This document shows, piece after piece, positions 4,024 through 36,381 of a DNA stretch of 64,000 bases; position 1 is the stretch's first letter, and every line of letters starts with the position of its first letter. A model generated the notes under the pieces. That model did no database searches and was not told the DNA's origin. It saw only the letters and a program-made list of their open reading frames with translations. Source of the stretch: Raillietiella orientalis (Eukaryota); contig JAYWIR010000088.1 in NCBI GenBank assembly GCA_036172245.1, positions 1 to 64,000 on the forward strand. The letters are read 5' to 3'. Both the position numbers and the translations under genes were made by a program.

Positions 4024-4040
4024 TGGACATGGTCGGCTCT

Positions 4041-4200: not shown

Positions 4201-4652
4201 GAGGGAACTGCGGAATGTCAACTGTTGGAATGTCAAAGGCTTGCGCGACGACGGTGACAGGCGAGATACATCCGACACCTTGCGGGAGTTCGACCTGTCC
4301 CTGTTGCAGGAGATCCACGTGATCACCTCGGCAGACGTCCAGGAGATCGAAACGATCGAGCGGTGTCTGCTGTACTGGCAATGCGGCATCCGCAACACCT
4401 GCGGGGTCGAGTTCTTCGTGAAGCAGGCTATCGACGCTGCCGTGAACGGCGTCCGCTTCGATTACGACGGTCGGGTGAGTCAACTGCTTCTCGGCTGGTC
4501 CGACTCGAACGATCTGATCGTCACGAATGTGTACGCCCCAACCGGTCAAAAGGGATACAGCAACAGTACCAGGTTGCTTGAATCCCTCAAGCGCGACTGG
4601 CTGGCCAACACGAACGTGCGGAAGCCTCACCTGATAGCGGGAGATTTCAATC
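4200..4652 (+). pseudogene. Family D APE, N-terminal half (host of the family A insertion)
   Basis: CWNVKGL...DLSLLQEIHV...NVYAP...HLIAGDFN; homology stops exactly at GDFN. Confidence 0.88.
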
Positions 4653-4730
4653 GAGTGCGGACGTGTTTTTCTTCGCTCTCGTCTCCGTGCTTTCATCCGC
4701 TTCATCTTGGCGTCGTACATTTTGACGACG

Positions 4731-6650
4731 ATGTCGACCCAACCCGAAGCTACTGAAGTTGGAGGAACAGCATCCGGATCTGCAATCGCGGAACCGAAGG
4801 CCGCCTCCACTTCGTCTTTCTCGCCAATGGAGAGGAGTTTTGCTGACGTTGCTGCCACAGCAGCCGTCAAAGGGAGACCACTCGACGAGTCGGAGTTGCG
4901 GGCATACGTAGCCCAAGGCTATCGACCTGCTCTCCGATATAAGGTGAGTGGTTTTCTTTCTGCGCGCGAAAGGAATCAGTTCAACGATGAACTGAACCGT
5001 GTTGGCGTGCGGGAGGAGGACCTCCTCGCCATTATGCCTGTAAAGGATATGGGCTATTTCAAGGTGCGTTGCAAAGACGCTGCACTTGTGCAACGCTTGC
5101 TGCGCACCCCGTTGTCGATCCGTGGCCAGAAGGTCTTCCCGGCCGCCATGGACGACTCATTTGTGGCGGAGATTTTCGACATCGAGTCCGAAATCTCCGA
5201 TATTGATATTCGGAACGCTTTGGCGAAATTCGCCACGGTCCATGCGCGGTAAAGGGTGCGTAGCAACCTCAAGGACCTCCCGTCCATACACAGCAGAGTC
5301 GCTGGAGTCCGGCTTACAATGCCGGACCGCCGTCTGCTGCCCACCAAACTACAGGTGAAAGACACGGTCGTTCACCTGTAGTTCGTGGGCAAAGTAAGAA
5401 CGTGCGAGCAATGCGGAAAGGAGGGGCATTGTTTGGATAAATGCCCCTCTGGAAAATGCCGTTATTGCAAACTATCAGGGCACCAATTGGAAAATTGCCC
5501 GGATCTTTTGCGAAAAAGGCAGCCGCGGAGCTCCATCTTAAAAAACAAAGCGCGGATACAAAGAAAAAATCAGCGAAAAACCTGGAGACCCCACGGCACA
5601 AATTCGGTAAAAACGGGAGGCGGAATGTCGCCCCAAAGCAGCAGGAAATTTCGCACGCGAAGCCCTGCGCGCCCCCTCTAGCGGCAGGGAGCCGCAAAAG
5701 AAAGGGTGCGGGGAATCCGGGGCAATGGTAAGTCCCCCTAGGCGCAATAGCAGTCCTTCCCAAGCACGCCCGGCTCTCTCGGAGTTCGAGCAACCGGCGG
5801 GGACACCAATGGACAACGGCGGTAAGGACATTTCCAGTAACGTCAGTTCCATTCCTTCATCCCCTGCAGTGGCTGAGAAGCCCAAATCGGGTAAGAAGGG
5901 TTGTGCCGTGTCGACTTCGAAAGTCGGCAAAATAAATCCGCGTCGCGATCCAACACCGCGAAAGCGGAGAAACATCTCACGGCGTCGCAGTCGGAGAGCA
6001 AGCTCTCGACTGGCGCGGATGCCATGACAACGCAGGGATTAAAAGCCCTTCCGAAGGTAGGGTGCATGACGAGCGTGTCGGAGCCATCGAAAGTGCTCCC
6101 GTCCAAAGACGCGGATGGCCTCAAAGATGGCAATGGAGCACAATCTCCATTTACGGCGCCACGCAAAGTGAGGAACCGTAATGAAGTAAAGAAGACTTCA
6201 GCAAGGGTCCCTCGTGGAACTGCGCGTGAGCACGCTGAAAACGCGCGCGCCGGGAAAGCAGCCGTCACAAAAAGCGATGCTCTGGTAACGGAAAACGACA
6301 ACACGACAGCTGTCAATCCAGCAGAACCTGTCACTACTTCGCGGAAGGCCGAAACCCGATCGAACATGCGCCGGTCGGACTCCGAAATGGATGCCGTACC
6401 GATCACCGAGACGAGGACAACTCGTTCGAAAGCGTGTGCGCGCCGATCAAAAGTAGGCAGCCAGGCAACGCTCGCCGCGAAGCAACGCGAAGTCTCCACG
6501 AAACCCGACGGGGTTAAGCCTGGCGTGGAGGCATTACATGCATGCAGCACCACAGAGGACGGTGGCGACCGTCCCCTCCAGCCAGTCGTGCTGCTCGCCG
6601 TCTGATCGCCGGAAGAAGGGAGCACAAAGCCGCCACCTTCCCAGCAGTAA
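4731..6650 (+). pseudogene. ORF1 (gag-like nucleic-acid-binding protein, two CCHC knuckles), disrupted
   Basis: RSFADVAA and LVQRLLRTPL N-terminal domain; CEQCGKEGHCLDKC and CRYCKLSGHQLENC; K/S/A-rich tail ending SQQ-TAA at 6648-6650. Confidence 0.88.
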
Positions 6651-9600
6651 TGCATGGAATCGCGTCTTCTCGTCGTCTGTCCGTAACGTGTTGAAACGTG
6701 AACGGACTACAGAACGACGAGAAGAGGCGATTAGTAGCCAACGCCCTGCGCCCCTTCGACCTGGCACTCCTGCAGGGGATTCACGTAATCTCGGACGTGC
6801 AGGCAGCCGAAATCGAGGAGCGCGCAGGCGGAACGCTACATTGGCGGTGCGGCGGCGCACGCACGTGCGGCGACGCGCTCCTCGTAAGAGGAAAGATGGC
6901 GGAAGCGGTGCGTAGTGTTCGTATTGATGACGACGCACGGATAGGCCAGCTTGTCATCAAGTGGTCCGAGTCCATCGATCTCGTCGTTAGGAACGTCTAC
7001 GTGCCGAATGGCATTCGCTACCTCGAAGAAAGAGTACCTTTCTTTGGTGAGGTGCAGAGCCACTGGCTCAACAACATTGGCTTCCAATTGGGGCACCTTG
7101 TTGCTGGGGACTTCAACGTCCGCCTGCTCTCCGACGATTGGAGCCGCCCGAGGGACCGCGCGCTGTCCATCGTGATGTGCGCGTCCGTGCATGCCGCCAA
7201 CTTGATGGTCAGCGAACCTGGAATGGAAAGATCGCTCGATTACGTTTTGCTCAATGAAAACCTGCATTCGCGCGTGGGAAGGACAGGAAGATTGCTGACT
7301 AGGCTTTCTGACCACCACAGGTGTGAGTTTGAGATTCTTCCGCCAGGCAGGGGGCCTCCGTTGCAAAACTGGAGGATGCAGGCACATTGGCTTAGCCAAC
7401 CAAAGGCTGCGGAGCATCTACGTGGACACCTCCGAGGATTTGCCATTCAAGAACTTGCGGACTGAGACGATCTCAAAAGATCTGTCCGCGAGATTTGCTG
7501 CCAATTCCCCTTGTACCAGCTTCCATGCGGTTTCGGAGAGGGCGTGGCCAACAGTAGAGACTTTCTGCAGGCCCGCACGTTTTCGAGACGCGCGGATGTC
7601 GGGCGTCTCGCAGAGTACAAGGCGAGGGCCGAGCGCCAGGTCTGGCAGTCCGGAGCAGCATGCCTGTTGGACGACAAGGGCTAGGAATGTTCGGCCCCAG
7701 CCGAAGTACGCCGCATTGTGAGACGCTACTACTCCTCGCTGTACGCGGAATCCCCGACGGAGGATATTCTTTCTGAGATACTCCTGTCTCAGGATGCTCG
7801 TGTTGTCGGCGAGGAGGAACGCGAACGTCTCAACGAGCCCTTCACGCCGGATGAAATTTCGTCCGCCATCGCTGGGCTGAAGAGACGAAAGGTGCCAGGC
7901 GCTGATGGGCTCCCTGCAGAGTTTTATCAGTGCTTTGCAGTGGAGCTCATTCCCTTGATGCTGAGACTCGCAACGCTGATGAGTGAATCCGGGAATGTCC
8001 CGGATTCCTTATGCTCAGCGAAGGTGCGTCTCCTGCCGAAAGGCGGAGACTTGCGTCAACTTAACATCTGGCGCCCGATCACCTTAGTAAACTCGTACGT
8101 CAAGTTGTTTTCCAAGGTGTGGGTCGCGCGGTTAGGAAGTATCGCGGAATCTGTGGAGAGCCCGTAACAAACCTACGCGGTTCCGGGACGATCCATGGAG
8201 GCGAACGTCCTTTTCGCGCGTACATGGATGCAGCTGCAGGAAGTTGTGGCGCAGCAAAGCCATGCTGCTGCGAAAGTCACTGCCGCAGGCAAGAAGAACA
8301 GGCGCCGACGGCAGGAGGCAACGCCAAGTGCCTTGGTGGTCGCGGTCGTTCTCCAGAAGGCGTTCGACTGCGTAAACCAGAAGCTGCTTTTGGAGCTTAT
8401 AAAACGCCTTGGGTTCCCGGTGCAACTCCTGCTGTATTTGCGCGCGTGCTGGCGCCACGCGCTTACCTGCACCACTTTCAGCGGCTGCCGCATGTAAGGT
8501 ATTCCCGTGCGTAGGGGCATCCGACAGTGCGACAGCTTCAGCGCTTTGCTCTTCAGTATCTTCTTTGAGTTGGTGCTTAGAGCATACAGGCTGACGCCGT
8601 CTCACTTGCCTAGCTCCTGCCCGGGAACGCCTGCCGTGGCCGCCTACGCTGATGACCTGCTTCTTCAGCTCCCCATGTTCACCCCGGCGTCCAGTGTCGA
8701 GGATTTCTTCGACCTGATTCGTCATGGAACGGGCGTGAGCGTGAACAGAGAGAAAAGCGTGGTCGTTCCTGTGGGTACGTCGTGGGAGGAACAGTCCGAC
8801 TGGATCCGCCTGGGGATCCCCACGAGCGGGTACCTTAAGTACCTTGGCGTTCTGTTGGGCGCTTACGGCGCAGCCGATGCGTGGGCGGACTATCTTCAGA
8901 AAGCAGAGTTGGCCATCAGCCCGTTCCTTAACGGCAAGTTTACCTTGCAGGAACGGGCGTCTATTTGGAACACCTTTGTGGCCCCCCTCCTCCGTCCCCT
9001 GTTTTTTGTTTTGGCCCCCTCTATGCGGCGAAACAGCGGGCTGAACACCTGCTCTGGAACGCTTTCTGGGGTCCGGCTAGTTCCAGGTTCTGCCTTAAAG
9101 CTTTGTTAGCTCCGCGTCGAGATGCTGGTTTGGGTATCCTGACAATGGAGCGAATCGGACTGCAGGTGCAGTTACGTCTGCTGGCACTGTGTGCCCAGCT
9201 ACGGACATCTTCCCTGTGTGTGCCAGCCCGCGTTCTCCTGCGGAGATGCGCCGACAGCATAGGATTTCTCTCGCTTTTGCCGGGCACTCAATACAGGAAG
9301 CGGGGTTTCGGGTTTCCATTGCGGCAGTTGACCGCACTTCTGGAAGCTCACTTGTGGATCTCCTGCCGCCCAATGAACTTTGAAGCTTGGCGGCAGGAGT
9401 CTGTTGAATCCTGGGCGGCGTTCCAAGGAATACGCTTTGAAGATCTTCGCCCCCTGCGTCAATTTTATCCACGATCCTTGGAAGAATTACTGCAGGACGA
9501 GGTGAAGTTTTCTACCCTGGATGCCACGCGTCTTGCCGCAGCGCTGTTTGCCCTCAGGGCAAGAAACGACAGTTACCAATAGGCGAGGTTGGAGATTTCC

Positions 9601-10243
9601 TGCACGATAGCGGGAAAAACCAAAATTCCTTGGTGCCTGGAAGACGAGTGAGTTGGCGGACGCCGCCACCTCTTGTGCTGCTGCAAAGGGTCTCCTCTGG
9701 TGGGCAGAAGAACTTGCTGTCACCCCCAAAGAAGTTGTAGTCCCTTCACAGTGTATTAGCAGTTCGCTGCTCTCCCTTGCTTGGAAACAAGACGCGTTGG
9801 TTTTTGTTCACTGGAGTTTTCAGTGCAACGAGCGTTGGCATCGTGACTCCGGGGGGCTTGCGTCTGCGAACTGCGTTCGGTGCGGATCCACGTAGTCGAT
9901 TCCGCACCTACTTCTGGACTGCGGTGTCCTACAAGGACTGTGGCGTAGGCTGACAACAGCACTAATGCATCCCGTGGACATCGCAAGAGACTTGCTGCGG
10001 CGATTCTTCACGCCGAGCGGGCTGTCCCTAAGCGCAAAAATTGCAACCATCGGTTGCATACGCGCGATAGTTTCCGTCCGCCAGGCGTTGGTAATCAACG
10101 GACAGCACCAAGAGGTAATCAGCAAAGCATCCTTCCACATGGAAGCATCCGGTAGATGGCCTCATTTGACAGAGGAGACAAAAAGGAATCTCGCCGCAAT
10201 GCACCGCCGGTTTACACACGCTCAGCAGCGGCTAACCCGGTGA
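6650..10243 (+). pseudogene. ORF2 (APE-RT-zinc finger), disrupted
   Basis: NVNGLQ, LQGIH, AGDFN, LSDHH; PGADGLPAEFY, WRPIT, KAFD, GIRQCD, AYADDLL, KYLG; NCVRCGST..PHLLLDC. Confidence 0.92.
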
Positions 10244-10556
10244 TCATTGCCCTACCCTCCATAAACTAATTTTGTATTTTCTTTTCACACCCGCGTCCCC
10301 ATAGGCTCCGGAGCATTCCAGGTGGTCATCGTTTAAATCTTTGTGAGTTCGAAGCCTAACCAAAAACCCGTTACCCTTCCCTCCAGTTTTTGATTTTTGT
10401 TTGTTTTTCCTCATTCCTCATACGCTGCAAACGGTTTGTCTACCAGGCCTGCGTGCCGGTAATTTTTCTATGTTCCCTGTCGTTCTGTTGGTTGGAGACA
10501 TTGTCCCTGTCCAGTTTATCATTATTAATAAACGCTCCGGAGTGACCGGGTGATAA

Positions 10557-10899
10557 ATTTTAATCTCCGTCTGCTATCAGTTGATCCTAAAACACAAGTA
10601 AACCCTATGAACGAGATCTACGCCGCCATGCGTGCGCGCAACTTGTTCGAGGGTGAGAGGGAAATTAAGCGCAGCATCGACCACGTCTTCTTCTACGCTG
10701 ACCTGTCTTCACGGGTCGGCAAACGGGGGAAGCTTGCGTCGACGCTGTCGGACCATTCGCGGCTAATTTTCGAGATGCGGCCTCGCGACAAGGGACCGCC
10801 ATTCAGGGATTGGCGTCTACCGGGGGACTCGACGCGACTGACAAGTGCGAAGAAACACCTTTGCGAATTCCTGAGAGGCGTCACGCTCCAGAGTCTCTC
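10557..10899 (+). pseudogene. Family D APE, C-terminal half (continuation of 4200-4652)
   Basis: FNLRLL...SIDHVF...LSDH...LRGVTLQSLS, then interrupted by a minus-strand 3' end. Confidence 0.88.
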
Positions 10900-13707
10900 T
10901 TGAAACCTGGTACGCCGGGACGTTTATGTGTTCAAATAAACTTATATAAACTGTGACTGGACCAGTAGTGCAGCCACGCCCTGGAAACATTCAGCCTGCC
11001 GGGCTACCGGTGCACAGACCGACGCGATCGACCTCGGCAGCAGAGAAGAAAGGGAATCAAAGAGAAAGAACAAAAAGAAATAAACAAAACCGGGATAGGA
11101 GCGGGAAGGGACCACTGTCTGTTGAGAGGGTCCGTCAACTTCTGGAGGATGCACGCAAGCTTTCGCTGAATGGTGGATTCCAGATGGGGCCATCGCGTCG
11201 ACTTCCTCAGGAAACGGGCGGCGTACACGGTGGTGTCCCTGTCGCTGGACACTCCCGTCGCTTTGCTCCAGGCCACGACGATCCCGCGTAGGCAGCACAG
11301 GGTTGCAAGCAAGGCCGCCGCAGGCAGGGCGTCACGGACGAAGAGGGGGCGCAAAGAGTCTCTGGAATTGTCTCCGCAATTCCCCAGGGCCGCGGAAAAG
11401 CGTTACTACAAGGGACGGAGGGCAACACATTCCAGTAACAGGTGATGGAGGTGTTCCCTCTCCCCGCAGCTGACACAATTGGGGTTCACACCCCACCGCG
11501 TCCAGTGGTGTCGGCGGGCGTTGCAGGGGAGGCCTCAATGCGACACCAGTAGTGCCGACTGTTGCCACTTCATGGGGAGGGTGCGCGAGTCCATGGGCAA
11601 CGGGGGCTTCTCCAGATATTCCTCTGGAACACCCAGTAGCTCGTCCCAGCGCAAGAGACCATTTGCGGTGGTCCTCGGGGTCGCAGCGCTGGTGAGCTGA
11701 CCGGTTCTCCAATCCCCGATCTTCTTTGCCCTACTGGTGATCTTGACAGTGAAATTTCATTGTGCCGCGACGTCGCTGCCCAGATGTTCCCGTATTGTAG
11801 GCAGTACCGCAGCAAGTGAGGGACTTTGAGCCCACGCTCTTTTTCGGGGTTCCTCGAAGATTTCTCGGAACGTGCGGTGGGCGTGCGGACCAAACAGAGC
11901 TATTCGCTGTTGTTGCAGGCTCTGCTCCTGAGTCATCGCCCACGTGCGGACGGTTTCCTGCAGCCAGGCAGGACCGTTCGCGGAACGTACGAGGATCCAC
12001 TCCGAGTTGGTCTTCACGAGCTTCGCCGCCCTTCGAAGCTCAAGTCCGCCGTAGCAGATATGGCTTCCGAGTGCAAAGTAGGACGAGAGTCCCGCATTGA
12101 TGGTGGCCCGCTCGACGAGGAGACGTGCAGGGAGGTACCAGGCGGTGCACCAATTTTTTGCCATAAAGGCAACACTCCGGAACAGGAGCTGAAGCTCAAT
12201 CCGCTCCAGCGTCAGGAGGCCAAGACCGCCGTCCCGACGCGGAGCGCACAAGTCCGCGAGACGGACTCGGGGCCTCTTTCTACCCCAAAGGGCTATCCTC
12301 AGGAGGTCCTTCGTCCTTTTCCTAGACTCCGCTGTGTGGGGGCAAACAAAAAGCAAGGGGCGAAGGAGGGGTGCCGCAAACGCGTTCCACGCCGCGGCCC
12401 GTTCCTGCAGGTAGAACCTGCCATCCTGGAACAGGCAGATCGCCGTTTGAGCCTTCTGAAGGCAGCCGGATTACGCTTCCGCAGGGGAGTAGTCCCCCAA
12501 CGGCACACAAAGGTACTTGAAGTACCTCACCGTGGGGATCCCCAAACAGACCCAGTCCTGCTGCTTTGCCGACGCCGCTCCGACTGGCATTACAAATGAC
12601 TGCGCTATGTTCACCATAAGTCCGGTTCCATGATGATGCAGGTCGAAGAACTCCTCGAGCACCGAAGCCGGTGTGGACATAGGGAGCAGCAGCAGAAGGT
12701 CGTCCGCGTATGACGAAACCGCAGGCGCACTGGGACAATCTCGCGGCAGGTGCGCCAGAGTCTCCCTGTACGCTCTCAGAACCAATTCAAAAAAGGCGCT
12801 AAAGAGCAAGGGGCTCAGGCTCTCTCCCTGCCGGATCCAACGTCGCACCGTTACGTTGTGCACGGTTTGCCCGCTGGAAAAAACATTAATGATCGCGTCG
12901 CGCCAGCTGGAGCGCAGGTAGGCCAACTAAGAGGCCGAGAAGCCCAAGCGTTCTAGAAGCCCCAGCAAGAGATTCTGGTCGACGCTGTCGAAAGCTTTAC
13001 GCAAGTCGACAGCGACCGCAAGGGCTCCCTAAAACACCCAACCGTCCCGTCTTTCGCCATCGGACGCACCGGAATTCCGGCTGCTCACTAAGACTGTTTG
13101 CTTGTTGGAGCTCTAATCATGTGGAAGCGTGGAACAGGTTTGCCTCTATGCTTCGCCCGGGAACAGCATAAGTCTGTTCCGGGCTGATGAAGATGTTGGA
13201 AACAGGTCCCAGACTCTCTGCTTACATCTTAGTTATCAACTTGGCGTCCTCATTCACTATTGTGATTGGACGTCAGTTGTTCATGTCCGTATCTCCTGCC
13301 AGCAAGTTTTGCGTGTGCATTTGTGCGCACAACTCGTTGACGTGGTCGTTCAGTGTAACCGGCGCACTTCAAAGCAGGCGCAGGTTGAAGTCACCTGCGA
13401 TCATGTGCGCTTTGTCAACACCTGCTTCGATTAGCCAATCGCCTTCAAGGGCGAGGTAGAATTCTCTTCTTGCATTCGTTCTTAACGCGTATCAACTGCT
13501 AGGAGCGTACAGCTTGGTGACGATCAGGTCGATTGAGTCGGACCAGCTGAGAGTCAGCTGACCGACGCGACCGGAGTCATCAAACCGTACGTGCTTGATT
13601 ACGGCCTCGATGGCTGGCCGAAGCAGGAAGGCGATACCGCTAGATTTCGCGGTGAGGCAGCGCCACAGCAGCTGTGAACCCGAGATCCCTTCGATCTCCT
13701 GCGCTCG
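10900..13707 (-). mobile_element. Family C-like LINE: 3' UTR, RT, internally deleted APE
   Basis: 3' end ATAAACGTCCCGGCGTACCAGGTTTCAA; SYADDLL, RQGESLSP, GGLG. APE is fused to RT at ~13285. Truncated at AQEIEG by the next element. Confidence 0.9.
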
Positions 13708-16533
13708 TACAGTGCCGACGTGTTTCCGCGTCTATCCGTGCCAACGATCGGGCAACTTTGTTCCTTCGTTTTCACTCGCACTTGTGTGTTCCTGGGCAAT
13801 CTGCAGAGCGGCATAGTGCAACATGGCCAGTACACAGGATAGTGTGGAGGAGCAAGCCACTGGATGCACTTCAGCTGCACTTGAAGTGACTGCATCCTCC
13901 GTAATGGTTTCCTCGCCCCCAATGAGGAGTTACGCCGCCGTTACCTCCCAAAGACCAGGACCCTGCGATGCGGAGTTCCAGGCATATGTGTCATCAGCAT
14001 ACATGCCTGCACTCCGTTATAAGGTCAGTGGGCCCCTTAACGGGAGAATCGGTCGTGAGCTCAATGATGAGCTCGTCCGGATCGGCGTTCGCGAGGAGGA
14101 ACTCCTTGCCATAATGCCTGCTGGCAGGATGGAATATACGAAGATTCGGTGCTAGAACGCAGCACTTGTGCAGCGCCTCCTCCGTACGCCGTTGACCATC
14201 AATGACAAGGAATTCCTACCTACCGCGATGGACGACTCTTTTGTCGTTCAATTGTGCGACATCGAACCGGAAATCTCCGACCGCAATGTTGTGAGCGTGC
14301 TGGCGCAGCTCGCCAACGTGCACACCCTGTGGAGGAGGCCGAACTGTTTGAAGGATTTCTCCTCTGTCCACATCGGACAATCCTCGGCGCAAATCACCGT
14401 CGCGAACAGGCGTGTTATGCCTGAGTAGCTGCAGGTGAACGGCACGGTCGTACACCTGTGGTTCATAGGCCAGACTCGCGCGTGCGAGCAGTGCGGCAAG
14501 GATGGGCACCGAATTAAAGAGTGCCCCTCTCCAAGATGCCGCTATTGCAAAGATTCCGGGCACGAAATCAAAAAGTGCCCGGTACTTGCAAGAAAAAGAG
14601 CCGCAGCGGAAATTCGTCGGGTTCAAGAGACCACTGCACGAAAAGCCGCAGCGGCAAATAGAAAACGTCGTTCGCAAAAACTCGCAAAAAACCACGAGCT
14701 ATCCGCGCATGAAAAGAAAGCATCCCCGCCCGCAACGCCCCGAAAGGGGAAAGCCACGGCGGGGAAGCCAATTAAAAAGGGGCGCGAGGGTTTGACGCGT
14801 GCCTTGCCTGTGCTCTCTGCCGAACTCGCAGGCACCTCTCCGAGCCAGGAACCAGGAAATCTCCGTAACACCCTGGAAGGAAGGGTAGGAAAACAGGAAC
14901 ATCGCAACAGTGCGAAGAATTCTTGCCCCGTTCCGTTGTCCCTTCCGAGTTCCGGACAGCCCACTGCAGCGCAGGCCCCTCTGCAAAAGCTACGAAAGCC
15001 GTAAAAAGCAGCGTCGCGACGAGCAAAAGCACGCTGCATACAGTAGCCCTATCGCCCACTTGGCAGGAGAGGAGCAATCTCCCTACTGTCAAGAAGGTGA
15101 CTCCGTTGCCGCCTTTTAAAATCGTAGCAAAAGCAACGCCCCCAGAGAACGCAGCGAAAATCCCGGAGGTTTCCGCAACTACTATCGCTGAAGCCACAGA
15201 AATCGCGAAGGCGAATGAAAGGTTGTAGAGAGGAGGAAAGAAAAATCTCCAAGAAACGCTTAGCAACATACATCCTTGAGCTCTTCCAAAGGAAAAAGCA
15301 GTCGCGCAAATACGAAAACACGCGCGGCTTGTGCCTCTTCCCAGGAAAAAGTCAGCGCCTTCAACGCGTGCAAGTCCGCTTCTGTGACCGCCGAGAAGAC
15401 CATTGCGGTGCAATCGGACGGATGCAAACGCACGTCGATCGTGCGAGCATCAGATTCCTCAAAGGATTCCGATAGCGCAACTAAACGACGCGTCACTCGC
15501 GCGGGAGCGAGCGCTTGCAGGGCTAAAGCCCTGAGGCGTGGCACACTCGCCGCGGAACGGCAAGTGCTCACCCCGAAACACACAGGTTCTGCACCCGGGG
15601 AGGAGCACCCGATTACGTGCAGCACAGTAGAGGCCTTTGGCAAACGCGCCCTCCAGCCCGTTGTGCTGCTTTCTGCCCGCTCGCCGGGTGAGGCGGGCAC
15701 CAAGCCCTCGCTTTCCCAGCCGTGATAAGGGCAATCGCGTCTTCTCGTCGTGTTGCCGTGACGTCTTGGAACGTCAATGGGCTCCAACACGAGGAGAAGA
15801 GGGGACTTGTTGCTCACGCTCTGCGCGCCTTTGACTTGACGCTCCTGCAGGAGATTCACAGCATCTCCGAAGAGCAGGCTTCCGTAATCGAACAACGCGG
15901 GGGCGGAACGCTACTTTATAGGTGCGGCGCTGCACGTACGTGCGGCGTCCCTTTCCTTATGCGAGGAACTTTGACAGGAGCGCTGCGCAGCGTTCGTTTC
16001 GACACGGGAGCCTGAGTGGATCAGCTTCTACTGAAGTGCTCCGACTCCCTCGACCTTGTCGTAACCAACGTGTACGCGCCGAGCGGTGCTTGAGGATGGG
16101 CCGAAAGAATTGAGTTCTTCGGTACCGTTTAAAGCCAGTGGCTCACTCGATCTCACTCTACTGTCTCCCAACTCATTGCGGGGGACTTCGACGTCCACCT
16201 GCTTTCCGATAATAGCTTCCACAAAAGGGAAAAGTTGCTAGCGGAAGAGATGTCCGCATCCGTGCATGCGTGCAACTTGTTCGCTAGCGACTCTGTGATA
16301 ACAGCCACGCCGGATCAAATATATCTTGATGAACACTTGCTCTCTCGAGTGAGACGGAAAGGTCCTGTGCCGTCCCTGCTTTCAGACCACAACAGGCTCA
16401 AATTCGAGTTGCTCCTGCCAGGCAAGGGACCTACAAACAGTTTTTGTAGGATGCCGGCAGAGTGGCTAAGCCACTCGGAGGCGTCTGTGCATCTTCGCCA
16501 GTACCTCCTCGGGTTTGCCATGAGTAAGCTCGA
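13708..16533 (+). mobile_element. Family B LINE, 5' half (5' UTR, ORF1 13823-15725, APE 15725-16533)
   Basis: Starts ACAGTGCCGACGTG; RSYAAV, CEQCGKDGHRIKEC, CRYCKDSGHEIKKC; WNVNG, LQEIH, GDFD, LSDH. Ends LLGFAMSKLD. Confidence 0.92.
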
Positions 16534-16758
16534 TTTTCAACCGGTTGCGCTGGGGTGTTTGTTCTTTGGAATAAAACAAACGTTGGTCACTGACCAGGTA
16601 GTCCGACCACACACTGGTATACAAAATTAAGCCTACCGTTCCACTGGCTCGTATTCTGGCGCGGTCCACCACGAAAGCAGAGGGGCCAAAGACAAGACAA
16701 AAAATAAAACAAATAAAATAAATATATAAAATTAAGATCTGGGGGGCACCAGAAGGGA

Positions 16759-19700
16759 TCACAGTCTGCTGTGGGGCCGTTAAATCCTTTGCAGGATACC
16801 GGCAAGCTGTTTTTGGATGTTTGAATCCAGATGATTCCATCCTGTCGCCGTCCGCAGAAATTCGGCTGCGCACTGGACAGCACCCTTATCGCGAGGTCCT
16901 CCCGTTGCTTTGCTCCATGCAGCGACGATCCCGCGAAAGCAGCACAAAGCTGCTAACGAGGCCGAGGGCCGAAGGGCGTCGCAAACGAAGAGGGATCTGA
17001 TTGCGTCTCTGGGGTTGCCACAGAGGTTAACGATTGCCGCGGTAAAACGCTTCAAAAGGGGCCGAAGAGCCACACAATCCAAAAGGAGGTGAGCGAGGGA
17101 CTTCCGTTCTCAACACCTCGCACAATTAGGGCTCACCGCTTTTCAGGTCCAATGCTGTCGGCGGGCGTTGCAGGGGAGTCCCCAATGCAGCAACAATAGC
17201 GCCGACTCCTGCCATTTCAAAAAGACGGTAGAGGTGTTCATCAGCACCGGGGGCCACTTTAATTGTTGCCGCGGAACATTTAGCAGCTCGCCCTAGTGCA
17301 ATAGACAAATAGGGGTGGTAGTCCCGGCCCCGGTATCGCAGAGAATTCCCGTTTTCCATTCCCCTATCTTTTTCTCCGTACCGGAGATTTTCATGTAAAA
17401 ATCCCATTTCGCAGCAGTGTTGCTGTTAAAATGTTTGCGAGCGGAAACAGCATTGCAGCGAGGGGAGTTTTTCTTGCCCACGCTCGTTTTTAAGGGTTCT
17501 CCAGGAAGTCCCGGAGCGTACGGCGGTCATTACGGGCGGAGTATTGTTTCTGCCTTTCTTATATGCGTTGCTGGTTGCTCTTCGCCCACGTCTCAAGCGT
17601 TTCCTGCAGCCATGGAGATCCGTTAACAAGGCGACAGCAGAGCCATCCTGCGTTCTTCCTCATCAAGTCAGCCACTCTCCATAGCTGCAACCCGCAGTGA
17701 CCGACTTGGCGGCGAAGACGGAGCGCCAGGAAGGATGACACTTTCACCTCGCCTGTACCCTTTTCGACGAGGAGACGTGCGCGCTCGCAGCAGCTGCTAT
17801 TCCAATATTTCGCCACTTGGGCGAGTAAGGGAAACTGGAGCTGGAGCTCCAGCTGCTCTAGCGTCATGAGGCCGATACCGCCGTCCCGTCGCGGAGTGCT
17901 CAAGTCCTAAAGCCGGACTAGGGCCCTCCCATTACTCAACACAGAAATCCTTAGGAGGTCCTTCGTCCGCTTTTTAGTCTCTGTGGTAGGGGGACAAACA
18001 AAAAGCCGGGTAACGAGGAGGTGCGCCGCGAATGCGTTCCACACCGCGGCCCGTTCCGGCAGAAAAAACCTGCAACCTTGGAACGGGCAGATCGCCGTCT
18101 CTACCTTTTCAAGGCTGCTGAACCACGCATCCGAAAGAAGATAATCAACCATCATTATACCGAGGAAATTGAAATACCGTACAGTGGGGATCCCCAAACG
18201 GAACCAGTCAGGCTGCCCTGCCCGCGACACACCGATTGGCATGACGGACGACTTCGCCCTGTTCACCACAAGCCCGGTTTCCCGACTTAGCAGCTCGAAG
18301 AACTCCTCGACCGCCGATGCCGAGGTGGTCATAGGGAGCAGCAGCAGTAGGTCGTCCGCATATGCTGACACCGCGGGCGTACCGAAATAGTCGCGCGGCA
18401 AGTGCGCTAGAGTTTCCCTGTAAGCTCTCACTACCAACTCGAAGTAGGTACTCAAGAGCAAGGGACTCAGGCTCTCTCCCTACCGTATGCCGCGTCCCAT
18501 CGGTACTCCGTGCACGGTGTGTCCACTGAAAAGGATCTAGATGAGCGCGTCGCGCCAGCAGTATCGCAGGTAGGTCAGCAAAGAGACCGGGAAGCTCAAG
18601 CGTTCCAGAAGCTTCAGGAGGACCCCCTGGACGACACAGTCGGATGCTTTATGCAAATGGACTGGGACTTCGAGAGCTCCCTCCCCCCCCAACTACCCCG
18701 TTTCCTAGCGGCGGATATTTTGGAAGTCCGGTTGCCCATCCTGACTTTTTCCTGTTAAATCGCGAAAAAGGAGCAGGCGAGGAACAGGTTTTCATCCATG
18801 CTCCACCCGGGAACAGCATATGTCTCCTCCGGGCTAATGAAGCTTCATGCTAACCGCCCCAGACGTTCAGCATACAATTTCGCCAGCAACTTGGGGTCCG
18901 CGTTTATCACGGTAATCGGCCGCTAGTTGCTGATTCTCCGAAGGTCTCCTCCCTTAGGGAGGAGACGCACCATTGCCGAACGAAACGAGGCGGGGACGTC
19001 GCCCGTTTCTCGGATCAGCAAGGTGAGTTGCTTCACCAGAGGAGTGAGCTCCGCCGCAAAACATTGAAAAAGTTCCGATGGCAGCCATCCTCTCATGGAG
19101 CCTTCCGCCTCTTGAGCTTTTGGATGGCCGAGATGATCTCGCCCATCGTGAAAGGCTCGTCGAGGTTCTTCCTATCTTTCTCTTCGATCGCGGCAGCGCC
19201 CTCGGGAAGAAGAAGTCGCGAGACATCCCGTTCCGGTGGAGCGGCGCGTACTGGGAGGAGTAGAATTTTTTTGATAGTCCATTTACCTGGGCGGGGGCCG
19301 AGTGCTCCGTACCCTGGTCGTCCAGTAAGCTGGCAGACCCGGATTGCCACGCCTGCCTCTCGGCTCCCTCACAGTATTCGGCTAGCCTGCGTACGTCTGG
19401 TGTTCGTGCGTAACATCGAGATTGTAAATACCATATCTCGTTACGCACGCTTTCACCAAACCTGGCAGGCAGGAGGTTCATAGGGAACTCGTCGCAGAAA
19501 TTCAGGACCGAGCTCTTGAAACGGTCCCAGTCCTGAAACGTCTGCAAGCTGTAACCTCGTATGAATCCGCGGAGATGCTCCGAGTCTTCCGAAAGTTTCA
19601 GCCAGTCCCCCAGTAAGCGCCACGCAGATGACGGCGGACTCCTATCGCGTGGGCGCACCTCGAGTACGATCCGGTCATTGTCCGACAGTTCCGACGATAA

Positions 19701-20342
19701 CTTGCCGCGCCTGCCCACGCGTGAGCATAGGTGTTGGTCAAGAAACACGTGATCTATGCTGTGGTCGATTTTTGGTTCTCACGCGAACAAGTTGCGCGTG
19801 TGCATCTCTGCGCACAGCTCGTTTACGCGGTTCCGAAGTGTGTCGGACGCACCTGACAGCTGGCGCAGGTTAAAGTCACCTGCCTTTAGGTGCGCCTTGC
19901 GCACTCCCGCTTCGTCCAGATATTCGCGCCTGAGGGTAAGAAAGAAATCTCTCCTTGCCGTTGCCCTTATCGCGTCGCTGCTGCTTGGGGCGTAGACGTT
20001 GGTAATGACCAGATCGATGGAGTCAGACCACCTGATGGTCAACTGCCCGAAGCGACCGGCACTATCGAACCGTACGCCCTTTGCCGTTGCCTCGACAGCT
20101 GGACGAAGCAGGAACGCGACACCGCAAGATTTAACGGTGCCGCAACGCCTCAGCAGCCGTCCAACCAAGATACCCTCGATCTCCGTTGCCTGATCTGTGG
20201 GGATCACGCGGATCTCTTACAGCAGCACCAGGTCTAACGACGTCAGGGTGGAGGCCACGTCTCGTTTCGTGCTGTCGTCGCTTACCCCGTTGACGTTATT
20301 ACAGGCAATTCACACACCGAGGCCAGAGGCGATTCCCGGCCT
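16759..20342 (-). pseudogene. ORF2 of the family C copy, disrupted
   Basis: NVNG, HLKAGDFN, LSDN; AYADDLL; DGGIGL; C-terminal DALRPSASLAALCCFRGIV. Confidence 0.9.
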
Positions 20343-21954
20343 TAAGGCTGGGAACGTGGTGTTGCAGCACCTGTCAACGGACAGGTGGGAGGGACGAGTA
20401 AGGGGACCGCGGCCGTCTCAGGCACTTGAAGCACCTGGGGCACAGACTCTACCCTTTCCCTCCCTCCGAAGTCGCAGGGTGAGGTTACCTCTCGAGGATA
20501 GTCCCCGGAGTTCCCCACTTTATTGGCACGCTCGCTTTCCTCAATTATCTCTTCCTTTTCCACGGAGTGGAGAATTTTGCGGGTAGCCTCTTTCGTGCAA
20601 TTGGCCTTTGGTCGGGAGACCGCGATGCCGCAGGCTGTGTTTTCCGCCTCTGCGTCAGAGTTCGGAATCTCCGACTTCTTGATCGAGGTCGGACGCCATA
20701 AGGCCTTTTCCGCGGATTTAAGGGGACGCTGCAAGGATGCAGCGAGCTTCTCCGCCGCCCGCTCAAAGGCGACATCGTCGAGCATGCGTTCGACGACGGA
20801 CGCCACCGCCAAGTCGATAGCCTCCGGCATGAATTTGCCGGAGGGCTGAATGTCGGCAGCGACGTGTGCTATTTAGCCGCTCTGTTCGACCGCAAGAATG
20901 CGCTTGATGACGACAGAGCAGCGTTTGATATTTTCGCGACGCGGCAAATTCTCGCTACGTTTCGCGACATTTTTTCTTACCTCCTTGAGGCTTTTCTGCC
21001 TCTTGGATTTTACTACCTGCCATCCAGGATCCTGGCTGTTCTTCTCGATCTTGTCCGAGTTTTCCGAGATCTCGAAGCTGACCTTCAACTGGGACACGAT
21101 AGTTGCTTTTCGAGCGGCTTCTCTCTCTTGGGCTGCCTGAACTCGTGTTTTTCTCGCCGCGCGCTTCTTGTCATTCCGTGCGGACGCGACGCGGACTTCA
21201 TCTTGCAGGCACACTGGAAGAGTGTGCTCGGGTTGCTTGCTTTGCTTGCACTGCAATTGGGGGCACCTTTTTTCAGGTTCCCTGAAGTGCTGCAATGCCC
21301 TCAGAATTGCGGCTTACCAACATACCAGATGTCAACCTCCACCTTTTTTCGTAGGGTACAACACTAGCGGACAGTGATGCGCGCGGAAGCAATAACGCAA
21401 TTGAGGAGATCGTACTCCCAAAACGGATTCGGCCTTTTCCACAACGCGTCGACAGTTCCAAATTTAACTAGTTACTTTCGGACAGCCTTTTCGGCCATCC
21501 GGAAGGCGATTTCGAGGAAATGGATTACGATAAATCTATCTTCCGTGATGGTGAGGAGCCGGCGATTCCCTAAAGGAACAGGTGTACGCAGCAGACGCTG
21601 AGCAAGACTTGCTTCTTTGCAAATGACATCAACGTACTGTCCACCACTCATGATGGTCATCGCCATGAGCTCCTCCTGTGGTACTTTGAGGGAGTGCATC
21701 GCTTTTGAGAAAGCGCCTGCACTCTCAAAGGAGTAAAGGTTGCCTACCTTGTAGAGTAGAGTAGGATTGTACCGGTCCTCCAGGTAGGCTTTTACCTTAG
21801 CCGCAGCCGCTTGCGTTGGAGCCGCAGCTACGGAACACCAGCTTCTCCCTAGCGAGGGAGTCGCTACTGTGGGGGCGGTTGCCCCCACATCCATTGATTC
21901 AGGAGGCGACATAGACGTCACCTCCTCCCTAACATTGGTGGTTGTCCCAGGCAT
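20342..21954 (-). pseudogene. ORF1 of the family C copy, disrupted
   Basis: MPGTTT..RSWCSVAA..LAQRLLRTP; degenerate knuckles (KRCPQLQCKQSKQPEH); ends RSQP*. Confidence 0.8.
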
Positions 21955-22061
21955 TAATGCCTAGCCACCACCGAATTCACTGGCACACCAAGAAAAAAAA
22001 GAAAAAAAATAAAACCATAAACGGTCAAGAGCGAAACAAAAACCCGTGCTCTCTCACTAGA

Positions 22062-26889: not shown

Positions 26890-28466
26890 TTCTCACCCGG
26901 TCACGCCAAGGCGTTTGTTCCATATAATATAACCAAAAAACCAATTGTACAAAATAAATTAGTTAAAAACCAAACTCTTATTCGACGAATGAACAAGAAT
27001 GACGAGAATATTGCTAACACGCAGGCCAGAGTAACAGTTTTGCGAACGGTGTGGGAGGGCGGGGAACACATACAAACCAAAGTAAAATAAAAACAATGAA
27101 TTAGGAGGACGGGATAGGGGTCTTTGGGATCGCTCTGGAAGACACGGGGATAAAAGCATGGGCACCGGAAATTTTACCGAACGAACGGGGACGGGGTATG
27201 GGTAGGCGAGAGGTAACAGGGCTAACCGGATTACGCCGTTCTCAAAGGTGTGTAAACCGGCGATGTATGCCGGTGATGTCCTGATTCACCTTGTCACGAA
27301 GATGAGACCACCTTGAAGCCTTCTCCATGAATTGAGTAGCAAGCAGGTGAGTCTCCGTTCGCTGCGCTCACAACTCCAGGGCGTAGCGGGCCTTCACGAT
27401 GGCGCGAACGCAACACATGGTTGCGACAATCGCGCCAACCGAAAGTCCATTTCTGCTGAAGAAGCGCCGCAGCACATCAATGGCAGTGCCTCATTGTGGC
27501 ATGATGGCCGAAGTGAGCCTTCGCCACAGTTCCCGGAGGTCACCGCAGTCCAGCAAAAGGTGCGGAAAAGACTCGATCTCTCCGCACCTTAAACAGTTTG
27601 GCAAAGCAGCTCCCCCGGAAACGATGCTTCGCTGCCTATTACAGTGTAATGCACAATGTAAAAAGAGCAGCACATCTTGTTTCCACTCTAGGAAGAACAC
27701 GGAGCTGTCCAAACAAACGGGGAAAACCACTATCTCTTCGGAGGGCACACTTAAATGTTCGCTCCACCGAAGCAGGCCCTTCGCCCGATTCCGAGGAGTG
27801 GCGGCTTGCTGCAGCTACTTTGTCGTCCAGCTGCCGAGGAGCTTACTGACTCCCGCTATTTTGCAGGAGAACTCCCATTCCGCTGGTAGGTAACCCTCGT
27901 TGCTTGACCTTAAAGCAGACAGCGCTGCAGCGAGTGGTGTGGCGACCAGACGATCCGACATCTTGTTGTCCTGCATTACTTTCTCCATTGGTTGACTGAG
28001 GAGAAGTCGCAGGCGTCGAAGATCTTCCGGGCGCGTTCCTTCGGAAGCTGCCCACGATGAAAAAGATTCCTGCCGCCATGCATAAATGTTCATAGGGTGG
28101 CAGCAGATCCAGCTTTGGGCTTCCAGGAGTGAGGACAGCTGCCTCAGCGGGAAGGCAAACCCTATTCTGGTGTGCCGAAAGTGAGGTAGCAACGGAAGCA
28201 GTCCCTCGCTTCCCGTGCAGTGCCTCGGTATGAGGCGTGCGGGTAAGCACTACGGCGTACACCACAGCTTGGCACAGAGCCGCAGCATGCGAAACTGCAC
28301 CTGCAGTTCGATACTGTTTAAGTGGAGGATGCCCAAGCCTGCATCCTGAAGCGGCGCCACAAAGTCTTTAAGTCTAACACGATATCTTGCAGCGCCCCAC
28401 AACGCTTTGCGTAGAAGGCGCTGCGCCCAGACCTTGACTTCCTGGGTGGGTTACAAAGAAAAAACA
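26890..28466 (-). mobile_element. LINE 3' portion (probably family B): ORF2 C-terminus plus 3' UTR
   Basis: NCLRCGEIESFPHLLLDC; FPLRQL..WRQES resembles family A but the 3' UTR differs. 3' end AAACGCCTTGG-CGTGA-CCGGGTGAGAA. The family assignment is an inference. Confidence 0.85.
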
Positions 28467-31400
28467 GGATTCATGCGAGGTTTCAGCTTGCAGACGCTTC
28501 AGGACAGGGACCGCTTCAAGCGCTCGGTCCGGAGTTTTTGCGACGAGTTCCCTATGAACCTCCTGACTGCCGTGTTTGGTGAAAGCATGCGTAACGGGAG
28601 ATGGTATTTACAATCTCGATGTTACGCGCGAACACCAGACGTACGTAGGCTAACCGAATACCGTGCGGGAGCCGAGAGGCAGGCGTGGCAATCCGGGTCG
28701 GGCAGCTAACTGGACGACCAGGGTTCGGAGCACTCAACCCTGCCCAGGAAAAAACGCATATTAAAAAAATTCTACTACTCCCTGTGCGCGCGCGCTCCAA
28801 GGGAACGGGATGTCTCGCGACTTCTTCTTCCTGAGGGTGCTCCGGTGATCGTGGAGGAAGATCGAAAGACTTTCGACGAGCCTTTCACGATGGGCGACAT
28901 CATCTCGGAAATCGGAAGACTTAAGAAGCGGAAGGCTCTAGGAGAAGACAGCCTGTCAGCTGAATTTTTTCAATGTTTCTCGGCAGAGCTCACTCCTCTG
29001 CCTAAGAAACTCACCTTGCTGATCCGGGAAATGGGCGACGTCCCCGCTTCGTTTCGTTCGGCAAAGGTGCGTCTCCTCCCTAAGGAAGGAGACCTTCGGA
29101 GCATGAGCAACTGACAACCGATTACCGTGATGAACGCAGACGCCAAGTTGCTGGCGAAATTGTAGGCTCAACGCCTGAGGCGGTTAGCGGAAAGCTTCAT
29201 TAGCCCGGAGCAGACATATGCTGTTCCCGGGAGGAGCATGGATGCCAACCTGTTACTCGCAAGCACCTTTCTCGCGTTCCAACAGGAAAGGGTAAGGATG
29301 GGCAACCGGACTTCCGTAATGTCCGCAGCTAGGAAACGGGATGGTTGGAAAGGGGAGGGAGCCCTCGCAGTCGCAATCGATTTGCATAAAGCATTCGACT
29401 GTGTCGACCAGAGACTCCTCCTGGAGCTCCTAGAACCCTTGGGCTTCCCGGTCTCTTTGGTGACCTACCTGCAAACTTACTGGCGCGACGCGCTTATCCA
29501 GATCTTTTTCAGTTGACAAACCGTGCACGGCGTACCGACGCGACGCGGCATACGCCAGGGAGACAGTCTGAGTCCCTTCCTATTCAGTACCTACTTCGAG
29601 TTGGTACTGAGAGCGTATAGAGAAACTCTAGCGCACCTGCCGCGCGACTATCCCGATACGCCCGCAGTGTCAGCATATGCGGACGACCTACTGGTGCTAC
29701 TCCCTATGTCCACCCCGACATCGGCGGTCGAGGAGTTCTTTGTCCTGCTAAGTCGGGGAACCGAGCGTGAGGTGAACAGGGCGAAGTCGTCCGTCATGCC
29801 AATCGGTGTGGCGCGTGCAGGGCAGCCGGAATGGGTCCGTTTGGGGATCCCCACAATACGCTACTTCAGGTACCTCGGTGTTTCGATGTGTGATTATCTC
29901 CCTTCGGATGCGTGGTCCAGCTGCCTTGAAAAGGTAGAGACGGCGATCTGCCCGTTCCAAGGTTGCAGGTTTTTCCTGCCCGAACGGGCCGCGGTGTGGA
30001 ACGCATTCGCCGCGCACCTCCTCGTTTCCCGGCTTTTTGTTTGTCCTCCTACCACAGAGACTAAAAAGCGGACGAAGGACCTCCTAAGGATTTCCGTGTT
30101 GAGTAATGGGAGGACCCGAGTCCGGCTTGAGGACTTGAGCGCTCCGCGTTGGGACGTCGGTCTCGGCCTCCTGACGCTAGAGCGGCTAGAACTCCAGCTC
30201 TAGTTTCTATTACTCGCCCTTGTGGCGAAATATTGGAATAGCGGTTTGTGCGAGCCCGCACGTCTCCTCGTCGAGCAGGCTACAGGCAAGGTGGGACTGT
30301 CATCCTTCCTCGCGCTAAGTCGGCGCCGCCAAGTCGGTCACTGCGGGTTGCAGCTACGCAGAGTGGCTCATCTGAAGAGGACGAACGCAGGATGGTTCTG
30401 CTGTCGCCCCGTTCACGTACCTGCATGGCTGCATGAAACGGTTCAGGCGTGGGCAGAGAGCAACCAGCAACGCACCCAAGTAGGGCAGAAACAATTCTTT
30501 GCCCGTAATGAACGCCTGACGCTCCGGGAGGTCCTGGAGAACCCACAAAAACGAGCGTGGGCAAGAAAAACTCTCCTCGCTGCAATGCTGTTTCCGCTCG
30601 CAAAACATTTGAACAGCAACACTGCTGCGAAATGGGATTTTTACATCAAAATCTCCGGTACGGAGAAAGAGATCGGGGAATGGAAAACGGGAATTCTGTG
30701 CGATACTGCGGCTTGGATTACCACCCCTAATGGACTTGTGCGCTGGGGTGAGCTTATTAATGTTCCGCGTGGATAATTGAATCGGCCCCCGGTGCTGATG
30801 AACACCTCCACCCTCCCCTTAAAATGGCAGGAGTCGGCGCTGTTGTTGCTGCATTGGGGACTTCCCTGTTCCTCCCGTCGACACCATTAAACCTGGGGAG
30901 CGGTGAGCCCTAATTGTGGGAGGTGTGGAGAACGGAAGTTCCATACTCAACTCCTTTTGGATTGTGTGGCACTTCGGAACCTTTGGAACCGTTTTGCCGC
31001 CGATATCGGTAATCCCTGTGGCAACCCTAGAGACGCAATTAGATCCCTCTTCGTTTGCGACGCCCTTCGGCCCTCGTCCTCGTTAGCAGCTCTGTGCTGC
31101 TTTCGCGGGATCGTCGCGGCATGGAGCAAAGCAACGGGAGAACTTCGCGAGAAGGGTGCCGTCCAGTGCGCAGCCGAATTTATGCGGACGGCGACAGAAT
31201 GGACCCATCTGGATTCAAACATCCAATAACAGCCTGCCGGCATGCTGAAAAGGATGTAACGGCCCCACAGCAGACTGTGATCCTTTCTTATGCAACTTAG
31301 ATCTTGATTTTGGATATTTTTTTTTTTGGTTTTATTTTTTGTTTTGTCCTTTTCCCCTCTGTTGTCGTGGTGGTCTGTACCGGAATACGAACCGGTAATC

Positions 31401-36256: not shown

Positions 36257-36381
36257 GATTGAAGTCGCCCGCAATGAGGTGCGACCTTCGCACGCCCCCT
36301 TCCACCAACCACTATCGCCGCAGGGATTGAAATAACGCAGTGCGTTCATTGGCCCTGTGGCTGCCCACTGAAGCGTACAGG
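36257..36381 (-). pseudogene. Short APE fragment ending at GDFN (host of 34836-36256)
   Basis: Minus-strand translation LYAS..LFQSLRR*WLVEGGVRRSHLIAGDFN. Confidence 0.8.

Follow-up and report, generated by a model that had tools for sequence, protein, structure and literature searches.

A LINE family in the GDFN codons of LINE endonuclease domains, a probable case of sequence-specific insertion into related LINEs

Long interspersed nuclear elements (LINEs) with a fixed target are known for ribosomal DNA (rDNA), telomeres, small RNA genes, microsatellites, and one DNA transposon. In this study, we analyzed positions 1 to 64,000 of contig JAYWIR010000088.1 from Raillietiella orientalis (hereafter, the window), which carries a nest of LINEs. 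One of these LINEs, designated family A, lies in the codons for the Gly-Asp-Phe-Asn (GDFN) motif in the apurinic/apyrimidinic endonuclease-like (APE) domains of related LINEs. All the evidence on family A comes from this single 64-kb window and a few look-ups outside it. Site-specific LINEs as such are familiar, and we rate the catalytic codons of LINE endonucleases as a new class of target; no report of a LINE that targets the coding sequence of LINEs or the catalytic codons of their endonucleases was found in the open-access literature.

Tx1L of Xenopus is an APE-type, sequence-specific LINE that inserts into Tx1D, a transposon (accessible parts of PMC6719617 and PMC4640811). Family A shares with the Tx1 clade (Tx1L, Keno, Mutsu, and Kibi) its organization as an APE-type LINE and its sequence-specific target, which in the case of Tx1L is another transposon. 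Elements of the Tx1 clade have an RNA-recognition motif and CCHC knuckles in open reading frame (ORF) 1 and a C-terminal CCHC in ORF2; the CCHC knuckles and the Cys/His motif visible in the translations of family A may correspond to these. The nearest named relatives carry PF13966, like L1/Tx1-type elements. No named protein exceeds 30% identity to the reverse transcriptase (RT) of family A, and an affinity with the Tx1 clade is a possibility. Contrarily to family A, Tx1L has an unrelated DNA transposon as its target in the accessible parts of the same papers, whereas family A enters the coding sequence of its relatives among the LINEs, at the catalytic motif of the endonuclease, and its own family is among the targets.

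Zepp of Coccomyxa/'Chlorella' C-169 and the Zepp-like L1 elements of Chlamydomonas are L1-type LINEs that form nested clusters, one per chromosome, at putative centromeres (accessible parts of PMC3446292, PMC8226300, and PMC9940879). The 44-kb nest in the window is alike in kind, in that insertion into existing copies gives a localized cluster. However, the accessible parts of these three papers give no fixed nucleotide target for Zepp. Zepp clusters are made up mostly of 5'-truncated 3' ends of one family, whereas the nest here comprises at least three lineages with their own sites and contains full-length copies. The ORF1 of Zepp is reported to be HTH_1-like (accessible part of PMC5203782), whereas that of family A is associated with CCHC knuckles. 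No green-algal protein is present among the 119 matches to P0001, the RT relative described below. Zepp has poly(A) tails, whereas the tails in the nest consist of 2-4 A.

R1, an element of arthropod 28S rDNA, has an APE-type endonuclease with sequence specificity (accessible part of PMC1919474). Like R1 and R2, family A is site-specific, occupies a conserved, multicopy, and essential sequence, and inactivates the unit that it enters. The difference lies in what maintains the target, which is selection on the host for R1 and R2 but selection on the parasites themselves for family A.

Family A junctions at the GDFN codons

A1 is a full-length family A copy of 5904 bp, and positions along it are referred to below as A1 numbering. 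It splits the APE coding sequence of H1, a host LINE of a family designated H. The left flank is ATTTCAATC (4644-4652), followed by GAGTGCGG, and on the right side GGGTGATAA is followed by ATTTTAATC (10557-10565). ATTTCAATC and ATTTTAATC form a 9-bp target duplication, the two copies of which differ by one C>T change. Upstream of A1, H1 reads ...HLIAGDFN with GGAGATTTCAATC as its last letters. A1 opens with GAGTGCGGACG and closes with ...CCGGGTGATAA, and past A1 the frame of H1 resumes exactly with ATTTTAATCTCCGTCTGC, encoding (D)FNLRLLS.... A1 is out of frame with its host, and the frame of H1 entering A1 meets a stop at 4756. The preliminary description had proposed one complete event with both flanks and with the host APE continuing on either side, and A1 in H1 is such an event.

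Three more junctions lie at the same position. At the 5' junction of A2 (32368|32369), GAAGATTTCAATC is followed by GAGTGTGG, and ATTTCAATC occurs again at 32360-32368. The 5' junction of A3, on the minus strand, is GGCGACTTCAATC|TAGTGCGG (36257|36256), with ACTTCAATC at 36257-36265. The 3' junction of A4 is GAGTGTCAA|ACTTCAACGTCCGCC (39241|39242), with ACTTCAACG at 39242-39250; the host site in this case is family A's own GDFN codons, which read GGGGACTTCAACGTCCGCC in A1. A blastn search of the window with A1 as query gave four pieces of family A besides A1 itself. The five family A termini, of which three are 5' ends and two are 3' ends, all fall on a single nucleotide position of the GDFN codons in the sense orientation, and a tabulation of the flanks in the window gave no family A terminus off a GAYTTYAAY site. 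These termini, together with the flanks of A1, bear out the earlier proposal that family A sits in the GDFN codons on the sense strand with a 9-bp duplication. For an element of 5.9 kb, the probability of hitting the identical nucleotide and strand again by chance is 7e-9 for two further events and 6e-13 for three.

Such a pattern might be ascribed to a retention bias, with insertion being random and survival being limited to dead LINEs; the first 44 kb of the window is nearly all LINE-derived, and insertions are harmless there. This bias explains a preference for the nest but cannot explain the same nucleotide and orientation in all five termini, and we give it next to no credence.

The H1 fragment was located by tblastn with the family A APE as query, and the host APE fragments were assigned to families by a nucleotide identity matrix of the N-terminal part of the APE region (APE N-part). 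H1 and H2 are 75% identical in this part, and H3 is 56% and 49% identical to H1 and H2, respectively. Family A is 52-55% identical to family H, and family B (represented by E5) is ~60% identical to family H. The hosts are thus three families, namely H (twice), H3, and A itself, in agreement with the earlier count of at least three host families including A.

One ancestral insertion might have been copied by segmental duplication or by re-mobilization of a composite, in which case the junction was copied and not chosen. Identity between the flanks of H1 and H2 is 75-77%, and their blastn alignment crosses the junction into A1 and A2, which are diverged to a similar degree. Duplications occur readily in such nests, and the E6/E5 and E8/B-5' pairs described below share an 86% identical composite. 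However, H3 belongs to a different family, its identity to H1/H2 being 49-56%; family A itself serves as the fourth host and has its own 3' junction there; and A2 is nearer to A3 (84%) than to A1 (74-76%). The ratio of non-synonymous to synonymous change (dN/dS, Nei-Gojobori method) between H1 and H2 is 0.53, with changes at 28 of 86 synonymous and 53 of 274 non-synonymous sites (Fisher test, p=0.017). The identity between A1 and A2 is uneven along the element, being 74% in the 5' part with ORF1, 61% in the linker, and 81% in the APE region (chi-square test, p=6e-18). Drifting dead duplicates should lack the dN/dS bias, the uneven divergence, and the greater closeness of A2 to A3, suggesting that H1/A1 and H2/A2 are separate events and that the hosts and the inserts diverged partly as living elements before insertion. 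Copying of a single junction is therefore very improbable in our judgment, and at most it would cut the number of events from four to three. The comparisons argue for four independent family A events, or three at the most cautious count.

In the region 34834-39241, the segments are arranged (in A1 numbering) as A2 up to 2423, A3 from 1425 to 1 inverted, 127 bp of H3 inverted, A4 from 3046 to 5904, and A2 again from 2457. Where A2 meets the A3/A4 insertion on the left, 33 bp of A2 (2424-2456) are missing. Twin priming is a model derived from human L1 for 5' inversions. The arrangement shares with human L1 twin priming the inverted 5' segment, the direct 3' segment after it, and the loss of the interior, but here the inverted segment holds 127 bp of an upstream host LINE and the target lost 33 bp rather than being duplicated. 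We lean toward A3/H3/A4 being one twin-primed insertion into A2, the alternative being several insertions followed by rearrangements. In a twin-primed insertion, a single RNA would have been copied both from its 3' end (A4) and from an internal priming site toward its 5' end (A3 and H3), with the interior of the copied RNA lost and 33 bp of the target deleted. The source RNA of family A would have begun upstream, inside H3, and the H3|A3 junction would thus stem from the source copy at another locus and would have arrived with the insert. We read the H3 stub, from its sequence, as a segment of the source locus brought along by 5' transduction, and it suggests that family A may ride on the transcription of a host LINE. 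Of the three additional junctions in the preliminary description, all keep their positions (32360-32368, 36257, and 39242), but those at 36257 and 39242 do not stand as separate insertions and belong to one inverted insertion. The H3|A3 junction remains an independent witness of insertion at GDFN codons.

Structure and relatives of family A

The reading frames of A1 are broken by stops and shifts. ORF1 extends over 4743-5252 from an ATG at 4743, and two C-x2-C-x4-H-x4-C knuckles follow it (~5400-5480, within the translation of 5382-5681). The APE region at 6695-7465 matches Pfam PF03372 (Exo_endo_phos) with an E-value of 1.2e-8 (35.4 bits, cut-off 24.5). In a weak sequence match (E 0.035) to 2v0s, a solved structure of the human L1 endonuclease, the GDFN of family A falls on that of L1; the Asp and Asn of this motif we take, from the L1 literature, to be catalytic residues. 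The RT region lies downstream of the APE region (7685-9580). The short RT ORF pieces of A1 gave no match to Pfam, and the segment at 8498-9109 is 53% identical to the RT ORF of family B (40807-41583, minus strand), which matches RVT_1 (E 1.2e-8, 35.4 bits, cut-off 29.6). The C-terminal Cys/His region (9611-10243) contains a C-x2-C...H-x4-C motif interrupted by a stop (~9880-9920). Pfam gave no match for the short pieces carrying the CCHC knuckles and the Cys/His region. The 3' untranslated region has AATAAA ~25 nt before the terminus and no poly(A), the tail of family A being just 2-4 A. A4 starts at position 3046 and is truncated, and no long terminal repeats were seen in a self-comparison of the window. 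Family A is thus an APE-type LINE, with an endonuclease domain, an RT, target duplication, truncation, and no terminal repeats.

A phmmer search with the family B RT ORF against 1.84 billion representative proteins gave one close relative, P0001 (65% identity), which comes from a 2.9-kb metagenome contig. Identity to the next relatives does not exceed 39% and extends over short stretches. A search with P0001 gave 119 matches, all of them distant RTs. The named ones among the distant matches are RTs from tick, frog, fish, and plant with 25-30% identity, several of which carry PF13966 (zf-RVT), and these would point to an L1/Tx1-like affinity and to nothing more precise. A protein search with the family A APE ORF gave no match in the near-length class. 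A metagenome scan with the RT alignment gave one weak locus, L001 (31% identity), which was left unused, and a look-up in the ESM Atlas gave generic LINE-like clusters. The RT family is very isolated, and the lineage itself is therefore poorly known.

Occupancy of the site and a possible mode of recognition

Position, orientation, target duplication, and diversity of hosts are read directly from the junctions, and independent copies lie in the same target at the same position within one window, as is characteristic of a sequence-specific LINE. We consider it quite probable that family A is a sequence-specific APE-type LINE that targets the Gly-Asp-Phe-Asn codons of LINE endonuclease domains. 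The window contains 10 APE sites encoding GDF(N/K/D), four of which (H1, H2, H3, and A2) hold family A.

Several points weigh against specific targeting. Six of the 10 sites are empty, namely those in E1 (GDFK), A1, E4 (GDFD), E3, E5, and E6, and the empty A1 site, ACTTCAACG, matches the A2 site, which is occupied, in all nine letters. The overall divergence of H1/A1 and H2/A2 is alike (77% vs ~71-81%), which is compatible with a duplicated composite. All family A copies in the window are degenerate, the sample amounts to three or four events from one 64-kb window, and the reading of the site by the endonuclease itself is deduced from sequence.

The presence of identical nine letters in the empty A1 site and the occupied A2 site means that the nine letters are insufficient or that saturation is low, and more than nine letters probably matter for targeting. 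TCCG follows the duplication in both hosts with a known downstream flank, and TGCG is found at the empty family B sites. Among the public runs, X1, from related material, alone holds the stretch, with ~96% identity, and its contig covers the H1|A1 junction. An X1 contig also joins 4648 to 10562, corresponding to the predicted empty site ATTTC/AATCTCCG, though the join is weak, its shorter side having only 23 letters (the contigs considered cover 6 of the 100 loose ends of this run). Runs X2 and X3 hold next to nothing of the stretch.

We infer a mechanism in which the endonuclease acts as the reader of the site, the two strands are nicked in turn, and the tail takes part in priming. The bottom-strand nick by the endonuclease would lie opposite G|AYTTYAAY and separate the G from the A of the GAY codon, with GGNGAYTTYAAY as the putative nick substrate. 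Reverse transcription would then be primed by the freed 3' end where the A-rich tail of family A RNA begins (...GGGTG-WYAA), and the top strand would be cut 9 bp downstream (AAYS|TCCG) to give the 9-bp duplication. The target is asymmetric, so every copy would come to lie in the sense of the host gene and split the catalytic motif of the host. In addition, the target is present in every functional relative, family A included, so each LINE insertion would add a landing site and the nest would pile up.

The site may be real while the endonuclease is not its reader. Pairing between the RNA and the target might guide insertion, or the machinery might be tethered to a protein bound to LINE DNA and nick with a loose preference. 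The candidate guide is the flanking host APE sequence on read-through transcripts. Guidance by flanking read-through sequence has been reported for some rDNA elements. One family A RNA appears to have started in a host LINE (the 127 bp of H3 in A3/A4), the sense placement in the host gene permits co-transcription, and the site of the B-like lineage described below is poorly conserved among its three hosts. However, the AATAAA located ~25 nt from the terminus, together with clean 3' ends of 2-4 A, suggests RNAs without downstream host sequence, and the hosts share precisely the same junction nucleotide despite many differences in their flanks. Furthermore, Rfam gave no ribozyme or other family at the 5' end of family A that would process a co-transcript, as far as the families in Rfam are concerned. 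A reader other than the endonuclease is, judging from these points, unlikely.

Inteins and group I introns with homing endonuclease genes occupy conserved active-site codons, where the target cannot drift away. The idea of a target that cannot drift is discussed for target-specific LINEs too (accessible part of PMC4640811). Family A had been likened to such elements; the likeness holds for the choice of a conserved site but fails for splicing, as the insert is a 5.9-kb LINE out of frame, with a stop at 4756 and without a known ribozyme family. Unlike inteins and homing introns, family A destroys the host gene and moves by copy-and-paste via RNA, not by break repair. The view that the hosts cannot mutate a catalytic codon away is plausible, though not as the sole driver. 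The 'hosts' are parasites too, with family A among them; two other lineages in the nest use fixed non-catalytic sites, one of which is poorly conserved; and the host gene is not restored by anything like splicing. With these three points and the six empty sites among the 10, the view is reasonable but hypothetical.

The nest and its other lineages

The first ~44 kb of the window is a nest of degenerate LINEs inserted in each other, almost wholly LINE-derived, with a GC content of ~55% and no CpG depletion. Insertions form chains, with E3 in H1, E4 in E3, and E5 in E4, and with A2 in H2, E9 in A2, and E10 in E9; A3/A4 likewise lies within A2. The elements are listed in Table 1.

Table 1. Positions of the elements of the LINE nest in the window
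Feature	Description	Position	Strand	Basis
H1	Family H host LINE, APE N-part up to ...HLIAGDFN	4229..4652	+	tblastn with family A APE, sequence, identity matrix
A1	Full-length family A, 5904 bp	4653..10556	+	sequence, Pfam, RT comparison
H1 continued	Right duplication copy, then APE C-part to the E3 insertion point	10557..10899	+	sequence, tblastn
E3	B-like LINE; 3' end antisense at H1 APE end; own APE cut at 'AQEIE' by E4	10900..13709	-	
E4	Sister of A ('C-type'), 5' end CAGTGCCGACG; antisense in E3; cut at APE end by E5	13710..16533	+	
E5	Full-length family B, ~5.5 kb; antisense at E4 APE end	16534..22059	-	
E6	Tail-to-head upstream of E5	22062-25707	-	
E11	B-like fragment	~25708-26890	+	
E7	C-type 3' part; 3' end antisense at 'AQEIE' site of E11	26891..28471	-	
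Family B 5' part	First ~485 bp of family B element, fused upstream of H2	31508-31995		
H2	Second family H APE fragment, 75-77% identical to H1, ending GAAGATTTCAATC	31997..32368	+	
A2	Family A 5' end to ~2423 (A1 numbering), 74-81% identical to A1	32369..34833	+	
A3	Family A positions 1-1425 inverted, 84% identical to A2	34836..36256	-	
H3 stub	127 bp of third host family APE ending HLIAGDFN (GGCGACTTCAATC) directly before A3 5' end	36257..36383	-	
A4	Family A positions 3046-5904, 85% identical to A1, terminus GAGTGTCAA	36384..39241	+	
A2 continued	From own GDFN codons (ACTTCAACGTCCGCC...) to APE end with E9 insertion	39242..39589	+	
E9	Family B copy; antisense at A2 APE end; APE cut at 'AQEIE' by E10	39590..42928	-	
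E10	C-type, in E9	42929 to ~44250	+	

B-like elements lie antisense in three host families, and their 3' ends fall within 1 nt of the same place where the APE region ends: E3 in H1 (3' end at 10900), E5 in E4 (16534), and E9 in A2 (39590). The host sequence at this site is poorly conserved. Two tail-to-head tandems are also found. At 22057-22064, the 3' end of E6 (…GGGTGCAAA) is followed by TC and the 5' end of E5 (TAGTGAGAG), and at 31503-31512, the 3' end of E8 (…GGGTGGAAAA) is followed by C and the 5' end of family B (GAGCGAGAA). The E6/E5 and E8/B-5' tandems are composites with 86% identity, reflecting either repeated use of a single site or a duplicated pair.

C-type elements (E4, E10, and E7), which are sisters of family A with the 5' end CAGTGCNGACG, are inserted antisense into B-like hosts, early in the APE domain, at a site that encodes AQEIE. 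Their 5' junctions are at the same position, with E4 in E3 at 13709|13710 and E10 in E9 at 42928|42929, and a 3' junction is provided by E7 in E11 at 26890|26891. Combination of the 5' and 3' junctions implies a target duplication of ~17 bp. The host flanks of E4 and E10 are 65-67% identical and the inserts 79%, suggesting that the two insertions are separate. Identification of the C-type site as a catalytic 'QE' motif was dropped, because translation showed it to be a second QEI ~12 codons downstream. Assignment of E11 to the C-type was also dropped, as E11 is B-like, and a twin-primed pair of E6 and E11 was rejected, E11 being 67-73% identical to E5 whereas E6 is 84-88% identical.

Family A and the two further lineages with fixed sites (three junctions each) indicate that this LINE group as a whole integrates site-specifically. 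All lineages of the nest have the motif AATAAACGCyCCGGnGnnACCGGGTG at their 3' ends, with 2-4 A after it (e.g., 10527-10556, 39212-39241, and 3618-3647). A hairpin in it (CCCGG...CCGGG) is conserved, but compensatory changes were found in none of the five pairs, and we do not claim the hairpin as a structure for this reason.

Some junctions in the nest are of other kinds. The 3' end of E1 (3647) adjoins an antisense RT-coding fragment of a further copy at 3648-3741 (tblastx E 3e-5), which would be a fourth kind of site with a single case. At 25707|25708, E6 (minus strand) is broken a few nucleotides from the AQEIE site and adjoins E11, which is B-like, 5'-truncated, and on the plus strand. E7 (minus strand, cut at ~4343) adjoins E8 (plus strand, from ~3057) at 28467-28471. 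At 31996, the 5' untranslated region and partial ORF1 of family B are joined in sense to a family H APE fragment that begins 8 codons before LLQEI; this fusion could be due to deletion, recombination, or a template switch.

The remainder of the window beyond ~44 kb contains a separate unrelated LINE, a U4 small nuclear RNA (snRNA) gene, and very GC-rich DNA. The LINE (~44200-47000, minus strand) bounds the nest on the right and truncates E10. It matches RVT_1 (64.8 bits), its ORF1 has a zf-CCHC match, and its APE region starts with NIASWKVNGL...CLQETH. The U4 snRNA gene (47890-48028, minus strand; RF00015, 100.7 bits) is the sole Rfam family match in the window, and it was rejected as a LINE target, the nearest LINE ending ~800 bp away. 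At 56000-64000, the GC content climbs to 67-70%, and each of the six phases contains long open frames; no gene was identified in these 8 kb, where the translations are of low complexity and rich in Pro, Arg, and Gly.

Implications of a possibly self-feeding nest

The three lineages each have their own place in the APE-coding region: GDFN in sense for family A, AQEIE, ~100 codons upstream, in antisense for the C-type, and the end of APE in antisense, with nearly blunt junctions and re-use in tandem, for the B-like elements. We suggest tentatively, and with somewhat more doubt than belief, that they form a guild in which at least three related LINE lineages share out each other's endonuclease-coding region. 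An insertion would kill a competitor and at the same time supply targets, and the cluster would feed itself and avoid host genes, providing a route to Zepp-like, possibly centromeric, islands. Family A may ride on host transcription in such a cluster.

Self-nesting islands of the Zepp type are described merely as "targeting existing copies" in the accessible parts of PMC3446292, PMC8226300, and PMC9940879, and the junctions in the window offer a mechanism at the nucleotide level for the origin of such islands. They also point to APE endonucleases with new long recognition sites of at least 9 bp. If true, a LINE whose fixed target is formed by the catalytic-motif codons of LINE endonucleases, including those of its own family, would be a clean example of parasitism upon parasites, and selection on the parasites would keep its niche in place.

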